Assembly: GCA_902770595.1 (NCBI GenBank)
Contig: CACXTQ010000007.1
Location: forward strand, 237 to 64,236
From: an uncultured Bacteroidales bacterium
GTDB taxonomy: Bacteria > Bacteroidota > Bacteroidia > Bacteroidales > UBA3663
DNA length: 64,000 bases
Direction of reading: 5' to 3'
Positions 17,270 through 25,658 of the stretch are shown here, piece after piece. How positions within the stretch are numbered: position 1 is the stretch's first letter; each line of letters starts with the position of its first letter. The notes under the pieces were generated by a model, which searched no databases, was not told where the DNA came from, and worked only from the letters and a program-made list of their open reading frames with translations. Both the position numbers and the translations under genes were made by a program.

Positions 17270-17382
17270 TTTGTTTCCACCCGTCTTGGGAAGAAAAAAT
17301 GAAATGATTCGTCATTTTTTCCTGTTTGGATTTGGTGGTAAGCACGAATTTGATTATCTTTGCGGCGTTAATTACTACTGCA

Positions 17383-18357
17383 ATGAAACCATACAAGTTT
17401 GAACCCATCCTGAAATCCACCATCTGGGGAGGATATCAGATTGCCCCATTCAAGGGCATTTACACCGCGCAGCCCAACATCGGCGAGAGCTGGGAGATCA
17501 GTGGCGTGCCCGGTCAGGACAGCGTGGCCATCGAACGCGGCCTTATCGACGACGTCGATGTGGGACTCACCCTCACGCAGCTCATCGACAAGTACAAGGG
17601 GCTGCTCGTAGGCAACAAGGTCTATAAGCGCTTCGGCAACAAGTTCCCCCTGCTCGTCAAGTTCATCGACTCGCGCCAGGATCTGAGCGTGCAGGTGCAT
17701 CCCGACGACAAACTCGCCCAGGAGCGTCACGGCTGTGCAGGCAAGACCGAGATGTGGTACATCATCAAGAGCGACGTAGGCGCCAAGATCTATGCAGGCC
17801 TCAAGAAGAGCATCACGCCCGAGGACTACGAGCAGATGGTGACCACCGACTCACGCGAGGGCGAGAATCCCATGGCAAATGTCATAGCCACCCACGAGGC
17901 ACATCAAGGCGACCTGTTCTTCCTCCCTGCCGGACGTCTGCATGCCATCGGTGCCGGATGCTTCCTCGCCGAAATCCAGCAGACCAGCGACATCACCTAT
18001 CGCGTATATGACTTCGGACGCAAGGATGCCCATGGCAAGCCGCGCGAGCTCCATATCGAGCAGGCCAAGGATGCCATCGACTACCAGGTGTGGCCCGAGT
18101 ACAGGACATCCTACGACAGCACACGTCCCATCACGCAGCTCATCAACTGCCCCTACTTCATCGTGCATCGCGTGGTCGTGCAGGTGGCGCAGCAGATCGA
18201 CTTCCATTGCGACTCGTTCGTCGTGGTGGTCTGCCTGTGGGGTGAAGCCAACATCAACGGCGTCAAGGTGCGCCAGGGCGAGACCTTGCTCGTGCCCGCC
18301 TCCGAAAACACGCTCTACATCTTCGGCAACGCCACCTTCCTCACGGCAACAATGTAG
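17383..18357 (+). CDS. manA: Mannose-6-phosphate isomerase, class I
   Basis: IWGG, GESWEIS, FPLLVKFID, LSVQVHP, GKTEMWY, HAIG, EIQQTSD motifs. Confidence 0.92.
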   Translation: MKPYKFEPILKSTIWGGYQIAPFKGIYTAQPNIGESWEISGVPGQDSVAIERGLIDDVDVGLTLTQLIDKYKGLLVGNKVYKRFGNKFPLLVKFIDSRQDLSVQVHPDDKLAQERHGCAGKTEMWYIIKSDVGAKIYAGLKKSITPEDYEQMVTTDSREGENPMANVIATHEAHQGDLFFLPAGRLHAIGAGCFLAEIQQTSDITYRVYDFGRKDAHGKPRELHIEQAKDAIDYQVWPEYRTSYDSTRPITQLINCPYFIVHRVVVQVAQQIDFHCDSFVVVVCLWGEANINGVKVRQGETLLVPASENTLYIFGNATFLTATM

Positions 18358-18390: not shown

Positions 18391-18423
18391 GCAAACCGCC
18401 CACAAAGGGCGGTTTGCTTTTTA
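18391..18423 (+). terminator. Intrinsic terminator after manA
   Basis: GCAAACCGCCC-ACAAA-GGGCGGTTTGC-TTTTT. Confidence 0.85.
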
Positions 18424-18492: not shown

Positions 18493-18853
18493 AAGTACTC
18501 TGACGGGAGACAGAGTACTTGCGCAAATGGAGGAAGCATCGTGACGGCCGACAGGATGCTTGATGCAGGAGGATTGAGCACTCTGACGGCCGACAGAGTG
18601 CTTGCGCAAATGGAGGAAGCATCGTGACGGGCGACAGAATGCTTACTTCTGGAGAATCGGGTACTCTGACGGGCGATAGAGTACTTGTTCCAATCGGAGA
18701 ATGGCCATTCTTGGCCAAGATTGGTTATGCTTCGATTAGATAGAGCATCCTGACGGGCGACACGATGCTTGCTCCTGCAGGAATGAGTACTCTGACGGGC
18801 GACAGAGTACTTTCGCAATCGGAGAAAGCATCCTCTCGGCCGACAGAGTGCTT
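18493..18853 (+). repeat. Array A: nine 28-bp hairpin units at 41-42-bp period
   Basis: Unit starts 18493, 18534, 18576, 18617, 18659, 18701, 18743, 18785, 18826; 10-bp arms around ACGG(G/C)CGA core; the unit at 18701 is a different palindrome. Confidence 0.9.
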
Positions 18854-18950
18854 GAGGCGATTGAATATTGCCGAGGATACACGAATAGTCGTGAATCGAC
18901 ATGAATTATTATTCGCTTGGCGAAAATGAAACCCTATTTCAGATCGTGGC

Positions 18951-19356
18951 ATGTCCCCCAAGGTACCGTGGAGGATATGCCACGATTGTCGTATGTCCGC
19001 TAACGTTCGTTGAAGGATATGCGAAGGTAGCAGGATGTCCGCTAACGTTCGTTGGGGGATATGCGGAGCTGGGGGCATGTCCCCTAACGTTCGTTGAAGG
19101 ATATGCGACGATGGAGGAATGTCCGCTAACGTTCGCGGGAGGACATGCAACGATGGGAGGATGTCCTCTAACGTTCGCAGAAGGACATGCGACGACGGGA
19201 GGATGTCCGCTAACGTTCGTTGAAGGACATGCGGAGGTGGGGGCATATCCCTTAACGTTCGCTGGAGGATATGCGACGATAGCAGGATGTCCGCTAACGG
19301 TCGCTGGAGGATATGGTTCTATAGAATGATGTCCCCTAACGTTCGTTGGGGGACAT
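18951..19356 (+). repeat. Array B: ten 28-bp hairpin units at exact 42-bp period
   Basis: ATGTCCnnTAACGTTCGTTGnnGGAYAT starting at 18951+42n (n=0..9), 14-bp linkers. Confidence 0.95.
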
Positions 19357-19532
19357 GATCACGAAAAGCCCCCCTCGGTCCCATTTAATTAAAGGGAGAA
19401 GATGCCATCCAGTCCCGATTTATTTATCACGAATTATCGAATTTGAGAATTAAATTTCAAAACCACCGCGGCATATTTTCACTCGTCAAGTATATTAATA
19501 TTCAACTATTTACATTAACAAAAATTGTCTTT

Positions 19533-24413: not shown

Positions 24414-25658
24414 ATGAATTTCATCTTTATCTCACCCCAGTTTCCGCGCACTTATCAGGAGTTCTGCATTCGACTGAAGCAGAACGGCGTGACTGTGCTT
24501 GGCATAGCCGATGCGCCCTACGAAACGTTGAGCCCGGAACTCCGGGGCGCACTCACCGAATACTACCGCGTAGATAATATGGAGGAATACGGCCAGATGT
24601 ACCGTGCCGTAGCCTTCCTTGCCCACAAATATGGCAAGATCGACTGGATAGAGTCGAACAACGAATACTGGCTCGAGCAGGATGCCCGACTCCGCACCGA
24701 CTTCAATGTCACCACAGGCATACAGTATGCCAACATCACCGCTATCAAGGAGAAGTCGGAGATGAAGAAATACTACCGCAAGGGCGGCATACCCACGGCA
24801 CGACAGGAAAAGACCGCCAACGGACTGGATGCCCTGCTGCGCTTTGCTGACGAATGCGGCTATCCGCTCATCGCCAAGCCCGATGTGGGCGTAGGTGCAG
24901 GAGGCACGCACAAGCTGCACGACGAGCAGGAACTCCGTGACTTCTTCGGGGCATACGGCAACCAGCCCTACGTCGTGGAGGAGTTCATCACTGGCGAGAT
25001 TTGTTCGTACGACGCCATCGTCGATGCCGAAGGCAAGGCGATGTTCGAGTCGATGACCGTCTGGCCACCCAGCATCATGGACATCGTGAACAAGCGCCTC
25101 GACCTGTCGTACTATATCGGCAAAGAGATGCCACAGTCGCTCCGTACCCTGGGACGCGAGACGGTGAAGGCCTTCGGCGTCATCAACCGCTTCGTACACC
25201 TCGAGTTCTTCCGTCTGGACAAGGCAAGAAAGAACCTCGGCGAAGCGGGCGACTTCGTGGCACTGGAAGTCAACATGCGTCCGGCTGGAGGCTACACCCC
25301 CGACATGATCAACTACGCACATTCGACCGACGTATATAAGATCTGGGCCGACATGCTAGCCTTCGGCAAGTCACGCCTGGCACAGGACAGCCAGCACGAT
25401 GCGGGCAACGCGCTGAGCAAGGCGTGGCCTGACGAGTACTACTGCGTCTTCGCCTCACGCAGGGACATCTACCAGTACGTCCACACTCACGAGGAAATCC
25501 TACAGCGATATGCGGGCAGCATTGTCATGTGCGAGCGCATGCCCGACATACTCTCGGGAGCCATGGGCAACCAGATGTACACCGCAAGACTCAGAACCGA
25601 GGAGGAGAAGGATGAGTTCATCCGCTTTGTCCATGAAAAGAAACAAACTACGACATGA
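24414..25658 (+). CDS. ATP-grasp ligase
   Basis: GYPLIAKPDVGVGA, VEEFI, HLEFF, LEVNMRP motifs. Confidence 0.88.
   Translation: MNFIFISPQFPRTYQEFCIRLKQNGVTVLGIADAPYETLSPELRGALTEYYRVDNMEEYGQMYRAVAFLAHKYGKIDWIESNNEYWLEQDARLRTDFNVTTGIQYANITAIKEKSEMKKYYRKGGIPTARQEKTANGLDALLRFADECGYPLIAKPDVGVGAGGTHKLHDEQELRDFFGAYGNQPYVVEEFITGEICSYDAIVDAEGKAMFESMTVWPPSIMDIVNKRLDLSYYIGKEMPQSLRTLGRETVKAFGVINRFVHLEFFRLDKARKNLGEAGDFVALEVNMRPAGGYTPDMINYAHSTDVYKIWADMLAFGKSRLAQDSQHDAGNALSKAWPDEYYCVFASRRDIYQYVHTHEEILQRYAGSIVMCERMPDILSGAMGNQMYTARLRTEEEKDEFIRFVHEKKQTTT

Follow-up and report, generated by a model that had tools for sequence, protein, structure and literature searches.

The two tandem arrays that lie side by side at positions 18493–19356 of the window (the whole 64,000-nt stretch of Bacteroidales DNA analysed here) have relatives throughout their genome, and they are probably lineage-specific repeated DNA, selfish rather than part of a local gene system. 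With moderate confidence, we read the arrays as a clade-specific palindromic minisatellite, similar to MITEs and BIMEs, that spreads as whole arrays and evolves by recombination in the register of the unit. The window lies on contig C7 of a genome assembly (G000) that comprises 125 contigs and 3.64 Mb.

The original prediction, made from the letters alone, described 19 units in two adjacent arrays. Inspection of the sequence, Tandem Repeats Finder (TRF) and a repeat search agreed on this number, with nine units in array A and ten in array B, and we found all the quoted unit sequences, the 28-bp palindromes, the 13–14-nt linkers and the likeness of linkers across the two arrays. Array A (18493–18855; no strand assigned, as for its foreign unit and the spacer below) comprises eight family-A units and one foreign unit. 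The family-A unit is an imperfect 28-bp palindrome with a CGGNCG core and linkers of 13–14 nt, and the repeat search recovered eight copies of this 28-nt unit at spacings of 41, 42, 41, 42, 84, 42 and 41; the alternation of 41 and 42 produces an 83-bp higher-order repeat. The 84-bp gap is filled, in register, by a single unit of another family, A2 (18702–18729), whose palindrome core is TTGGCCAA and which builds its own arrays at many other loci. A unique spacer (18856–18918), bridged without any difference by RNA-library contigs, separates array A from the family-B leader (18919–18949, + strand), a sequence that is kept 5' of the first unit in most B copies of this genome and of its relatives. 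Array B (18950–19356, + strand) has ten units at a strict 42-bp period: the repeat search found nine copies of the 42-nt unit at exactly 42, and ten when the last unit was included. The palindrome of its first unit is longer, nearly perfect and built on a core of its own (arms at 18943–18964 and 18965–18986), while the last linker and the last unit are position-specific across copies. TRF reported periods of 41 and 83 at 18497–18687, and of 42, 84 and 126 at 18948–19357.

An open frame of 142 aa with 14-aa repeats (18901–19329, + strand) traverses array B. Together with the strict 42-bp period (14 codons) and some variable positions that are synonymous in this frame, it would suit a repeat protein or a multi-core peptide precursor built of 14-aa repeats. 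We consider such a coding role extremely improbable: three of the six frames of the consensus unit are free of stops anyway, the ATG is not conserved in paralogous copies, no Pfam family was matched, the sister families have a 41-bp or 41/42-bp period, and coding does not explain the palindromic symmetry of the DNA. The 41/42 period of array A disrupts any reading frame. We thus judged the 142-aa frame to be an artefact of the stop-free unit. Similar ORFs of 100–190 aa with 14-aa repeats also occur over other arrays, and gene callers would probably turn them into hypothetical proteins.

BLAST of the window arrays against their own genome gave 60 hit clusters, and TRF identified 71 loci (25.9 kb) with periods of 41–43 bp or multiples of these; the arrays make up about 0.7% of the genome and many of them are found at contig ends. 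Among the 108 tandem-repeat loci of at least 120 bp and with a period of at least 20, 54 had a period of 41/42 and another 17 had multiples of it (83/84/126/166/208/210); the next most frequent period was 69 bp, which corresponded mostly to coding leucine-rich repeats. The consensus units could be sorted into no fewer than seven palindrome families unrelated to each other (A, A2, B, C, D, E and F), so that the prediction of a geometry conserved on unrelated sequences could be extended from two families to at least seven, with further families at 41/42 bp in a related genome (G007). Probes for the seven families recovered 564 non-overlapping units, 523 of which were placed in 63 arrays of at least four units, and each family was represented at 6–52 loci. 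A global minimum-free-energy fold of whole arrays joined arms from different units, so that the arrays could not be parsed from it, and span-limited folding was used in its place; the distance between hairpin centres was then 41–42.5 nt in 238 out of 469 cases and exactly 42.0 in 191, with typically 7–12 units or hairpins per array.

Some arrays mixed families in register, such as A with A2, or C with D in the form of 84-bp higher-order repeats, and A and B arrays adjoined at three loci. Once whole arrays had been brought into one orientation, 132 of 160 family-A units showed the asymmetric core as A..A and five as T..T, which indicates direct orientation, and the linkers of family B are direct repeats. 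We also observed a second, GC-rich palindrome family in the same genome, with a core like GGCAGCCATGCATGGCTGCC, direct-repeat linkers rich in G and C, and an irregular spacing of 40–88 bp. This family (C6:148213–148372, C6:155023–155244, C18:34194–34501, C35:10060–10260, C72:2848–3005, C100:2607–2746 and C46:83–213) is REP-like and distinct from the 42-bp arrays.

A drifting selfish repeat would not be expected to keep the narrow 41–42-bp period over unrelated palindromes, whose spans vary from 21 to 32 nt in G007, and the period hints at a constraint that our preferred reading does not name. An alternative reading is a set of phased DNA sites, in which cruciform-prone or protein-binding DNA every four helical turns might serve a structure-specific protein such as gyrase, an HU-type protein or a similar nucleoid protein, as has been proposed for BIME-2 and REP325 of E. 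coli (PMC2817692, PMC4550694). This analogy, a period that stays constant while the sequence and even the span of the palindrome change, the frequent 126-bp higher-order repeats, and the interchange of units of different families in register are all consistent with it. We nevertheless regard phased sites as unlikely, given that no protein could be assigned to them, that restriction to a sub-clade of one genus would be odd for a core chromosome function, that close species lose or swap arrays so that their place is not conserved, and that many units are poor palindromes, with only 7–8 of the 12 arm positions paired in family A. A tentative possibility is a satellite DNA whose 41–42-bp phasing is actively read, by machinery specific to structure and spacing that would recognise any palindrome every four helical turns. 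Such machinery, be it a nucleoid protein or a novel system for transposition or recombination, would explain the constant period in unrelated palindromes, the in-register interchange and the size of arrays near ten units. In that case a function of the arrays, or of their RNAs, in organising the chromosome or insulating gene ends would be expected in this clade of rumen Bacteroidales.

Regarding the genomic context, for which counts are based on crude ORF-based gene calls, 64 out of 65 arrays of at least 200 bp lay outside long ORFs. Most arrays were within about 100 nt of a gene end, mostly near 3' ends. The 45 arrays that had both flanks and a clear better-folding strand comprised 17 convergent, 21 tandem and 7 divergent contexts; in the tandem contexts, 8 arrays were sense and 13 antisense to the genes, which is uninformative since palindromes fold on either strand. 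Array orientation was not associated with local GC skew or gene-strand bias in any family, in tests with small numbers (Fisher p≥0.4). In the window, array A follows a mannose-6-phosphate isomerase gene (17326–18357; Pfam), and a terminator-like hairpin with a T-run, read from the sequence (18391–18423, + strand), precedes the array, so both arrays lie beyond that gene's own terminator. Downstream, on the other strand, Pfam confirmed the predicted AAA_14+DUF4143 and ADP-ribosylglycohydrolase genes; the predicted Imm33-like family was not detected, and the ORFs of 88, 173 and 275 aa had no family at E≤0.01. An ATP-grasp family gene was also present a few kb from the arrays (24414–25658, + strand), and we saw no connection between them.

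The arrays had been proposed to act together with these neighbours, namely the AAA-DUF4143 gene, a small ORF and the ADP-ribosylglycohydrolase gene. In favour of such a local system, 2 of the 7 AAA_14 genes that passed the cut-off in the genome directly adjoin an array (C7 and C24) and one more is found at 2.2 kb. About 69 out of 71 arrays have no AAA_14 neighbour, however, their neighbours being unrelated, and the orthologous arrays of relatives adjoin quite different downstream DNA. No consistent gene neighbour emerged across the arrays genome-wide. With homologous arrays scattered over the genome in this way, the partnership was not upheld and a local system is highly improbable, close to refuted.

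Some arrays had conspicuous neighbours of their own. The multi-copy flank of three family-C arrays was considered as a transposase, and turned out to be a small AraC-type HTH gene (164 aa; C50:42766–43260, that is L170:517–1011, with similar flanks at C5:1–900 and C41:1–120), which is present in at least three copies with a family-C array after each 3' end. At another locus, four ORFs form a 3.9-kb block that separates the left flank from an A2 array (G010 C38:94907–98851; L284); the block is present in G010 and G043 and missing in G000 C63. One of the four ORFs is TPR/DUF6377-like and the remaining ones are unannotated, and there was no transposase among them. Arrays often border variable gene content.

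Family B behaves as a discrete element of about 430 bp, and BLAST matches in relatives typically cover the same ~430-bp span. Its copies in this genome and in other species share the leader, the first unit with its distinct core, a characteristic second linker, the last linker and the last unit. Of the 17 B copies examined, most had the conserved leader, and 4–5 carried a tail formed by the inverted leader, while in the others the element ended with the last unit. As the units are palindromes, the ends of the element are inverted repeats in any case. Units from the same ordinal position of different B arrays were 77.0% identical, compared with 71.2% for different positions and 75.2% within one array. 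These shared features speak against the birth of each array in place, that is, its independent origin at each locus by slippage amplification of a local terminator-type hairpin with a preferred step. This origin would account for the position of arrays directly 3' of genes, for the many unrelated families, and for a hairpin flanking the family-E locus that resembles a unit and is retained beside a different array in G043. It is very unlikely, because the same families recur at 6–52 loci each, different loci and species share the leader and both end units, copies from different loci partly group by position (77.0% vs 71.2%), and the fixed 41–42-bp step is left unexplained.

The Y1/RAYT transposase family (PF01797) had no match in G000, G010, G013, G015, G021 and G047; a single match in G024 was the sole exception among the six other array-rich genomes. 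These genomes are only 77–90% complete. At seven loci compared with 3–5 close genomes, we found no clean empty site with a target-site duplication: an array was either present at the orthologous site, exchanged for one of a different family, or missing where the flanking DNA differed as well. That neither a mobilising enzyme nor a clean empty site was found counts against a MITE- or BIME-like element. Separately, we noted a dispersed repeat of ~138 bp (C12:34770–34909; L184:471–610) that has dozens of 76–84% identical copies in G010, G047 and G043. At the orthologous position of G043 (C159) the repeat is missing and its flanks adjoin directly; it resembles a separate MITE whose insertion is cleanly polymorphic.

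Sequences similar to A and B were abundant in 5 out of 24 species sampled from the same genus (21–39 matches each), weak in four more, and not found in any of the 16 genomes that represented 16 other families of the order. A scan of named genomes for the exact pattern returned multi-hit records only in ruminant-gut MAGs labelled as uncultured Bacteroidales, and the region had no match in plasmid and phage collections. G007 had no A or B match, yet 11–12 arrays of period 41/42/84/126 were found in 322 kb of its sequence, with palindromes quite different from those of A and B. No comparable arrays were detected in the DNA sampled from G048 and G016, which belong to the genus but are more distant (~200 kb each), and from two other families (G025, 200 kb; G027, 111 kb). 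G016 did contain an array of another kind (C10; L271:88–513), with a 66-bp period, 6.5 copies and a CRISPR-like look.

The pair of A and B arrays 3' of the isomerase gene was also present in G047 and G010, that is, in 3 of the 17 orthologous loci examined, and array B had ten units in all three genomes. The array region was 72–77% identical between them, versus 97% for the adjacent gene and 88% for the downstream flank. Length differences between close species corresponded to whole units: −294 bp (7×42), −122 bp (about 3×41), +42 and +83. The family-E locus carried a 42-bp array in G000 and G010, and a 41-bp array of another family in G043, between flanks that were 91–92% identical. Finally, one conserved gene end was followed by a B array in G000, an A2 array in G047, no array within 1.5 kb in G010, and a B array ~800 bp away in G043.

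The palindromic units would form hairpins from either transcribed strand, and each array could be transcribed as a string of about ten hairpins, which might act as a 3'-end stabiliser, as a protein sponge or as a precursor cut into units of ~42 nt. The original prediction had pointed to co-varying arms, and this held within array A: across its eight units, 92.5% of the cells were paired vs 87.6% in shuffled data (6 of 500 shuffles reached this value), and both sides had changed in 8 cells vs 3.5 (0 of 500). This covariation reflects two unit subtypes, so there are few evolutionary events behind it. Family B was marginal, with 81.5% paired cells in 150 of the 174 units found vs 81.0% in shuffled data (40 of 500) and a covariation score of 0.136 vs 0.125 (36 of 500). 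At the level of units, covariation did not extend to the whole genome: over 65 arrays, pairing between arms of the same unit minus pairing between arms of different units averaged −0.01 pairs (24 higher, 28 lower; Wilcoxon p=0.41), and the permutation p was ≤0.05 in only one of the 65. In the columns with a Watson–Crick consensus, uncompensated changes vastly exceeded compensated ones (compensated/uncompensated: B, 9/117; C, 0/144; D, 0/35; A, 19/458; A2, 4/158; F, 0/26). From this null result and the rarity of compensation, palindromy appears to distinguish families and subtypes and not to be maintained in single copies.

Other properties of the arrays gave a mixed picture of an RNA role. The predicted + strand bias towards G.T pairs in array B was borne out in part, since pairs of the G.U type were common at two positions, but an A.C mismatch was about as common at a third; across families, the G.T versus A.C bias was not significant in B, went toward G.T in C and toward A.C in A. 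Folding energy differed strongly between strands in many arrays. We rejected a linker motif GGA/GGAG common to all arrays, which could have indicated a CsrA-like sponge or SD-like sites: the GGA-rich strand and the better-folding strand agreed in 21 arrays, disagreed in 24 and tied in 18. No Rfam model matched the arrays at its gathering score, whether in the window (searched with E up to 10) or in arrays from six further families.

Part of the stretch was found in 11 RNA-labelled runs, and contigs from four runs of four studies were compared. Contigs from the RNA libraries of three studies matched parts of the locus without any difference, among them the unique junction (18786–18961 in run X1, 18857–19125 in X3 and 19119–19314 in X2), and there were also pieces with one difference (18585–18787 in X3 and 19286–19460 in X2). 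Assembled contigs of this kind attest the presence of the locus in independent samples and in RNA libraries and give no strand, level or ends, and DNA may occur in RNA libraries. Run X3 covered the isomerase gene and the arrays but not the downstream AAA gene, which is at most a weak hint, as expression levels cannot be ranked from contigs. The exact pieces count against selfish DNA and may indicate an RNA role, as may the strand difference in folding energy and the significant covariation inside array A. Against these stand the absence of unit-level covariation, the excess of uncompensated mismatches, the marginal result for family B, biases that are opposite in different families, linkers that do not track the better-folding strand, the lack of an Rfam match, and the position of the arrays past the terminator of the upstream gene. 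We therefore find a structured RNA doubtful, and the selected multi-hairpin RNA of the original prediction has weak evidence behind it.

The clade-specific palindromic minisatellite that we prefer can be described as follows. Its unit is an imperfect palindrome plus linker of 41–42 bp, and its element a series of about ten direct units, to which family B adds a leader and sometimes an inverted tail; the elements are intergenic and mostly near gene 3' ends. Whole elements would be copied to new intergenic sites by some mechanism acting in trans. After placement, as comparison of loci and species shows, whole units are gained or lost, 83-, 84- and 126-bp higher-order repeats are formed and families are mixed in register; divergence is faster in the arrays than in the flanking DNA, and an array can disappear or give way to another. 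Palindromy would be a property of the founder unit, either needed for copying or made by hairpin-templated repair, and would be left unprotected in each copy; transcription of the arrays would be read-through or incidental. A further point counts against this reading: both arms differ together between subtypes and families, so something regenerates or selects palindromy.

If the arrays are selfish or structural, their value is mainly practical and evolutionary. They break short-read assemblies and create spurious ORFs, and in an abundant uncultured lineage of the ruminant gut they flag intergenic sites next to gene ends that change fast. A period held at 41–42 bp while the sequence and span of the palindrome turn over fully is unusual among described bacterial repeats and may reflect a mechanism that gauges the spacing and not the sequence.

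The arrays had been predicted to be of an undescribed type, and this was supported by the absence of an Rfam match and by literature searches, which returned no description of 41–42-bp palindrome arrays in Bacteroidales. They share with CRISPR and TIGR arrays palindromic repeats at regular spacing with short intervening sequences. A TIGR unit is 36 nt long. The arrays are not CRISPR, as predicted, since their 13–14-nt linkers are variants of each other and not unique spacers; the region has no phage or plasmid match, and there was no cas-type family among the neighbours scanned. Very similar in geometry is the sopC centromere of the F plasmid, which consists of a dozen tandem ~43-bp units, each with a short inverted repeat. 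A plasmid centromere array of this type occupies one locus and has a single partition protein bound to it, in contrast to the ~70 chromosomal loci and many unrelated palindromes found here.

REPINs and the REP-RAYT system of Pseudomonas are likewise short intergenic hairpin repeats that behave as non-autonomous mobile DNA (PMC3116915), but they are inverted doublets mobilised by RAYT, whereas our arrays are direct tandems of about ten units and RAYT was not found. BIME-2 and REP clusters are high-copy, extragenic imperfect palindromes in regularly spaced clusters near gene ends, and they have in common with our arrays about 6–12 units with linkers, partial transcription and a higher-order alternation of two unit types (PMC2817692, PMC4550694). 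The 564 units of this genome are, like REP and BIME units, extragenic, high-copy, imperfect palindromes of 20–40 bp. They differ in their direct orientation, as BIME units alternate (inverted) within a cluster; in that RAYT/Y1 was not found; in the many unrelated palindrome families instead of a few and the period fixed at 41–42 bp; and in their host, an uncultured ruminant-gut clade of Bacteroidales and not enterobacteria. BrickBuilt, a minisatellite-MITE of Porphyromonas gingivalis, likewise belongs to Bacteroidales (PMC4596501), and family B resembles it in having a tandem-repeat core between a conserved leader and tail or end units. BrickBuilt is set apart by units of 23 nt and no spacers, compared with a palindrome plus linker of 41–42 nt here, and our arrays further differ by their several unrelated unit families; target-site duplications were not found at the seven loci compared. 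The nearest described systems are the clusters of the BIME-2/REP325 type and the BrickBuilt minisatellite-MITE.
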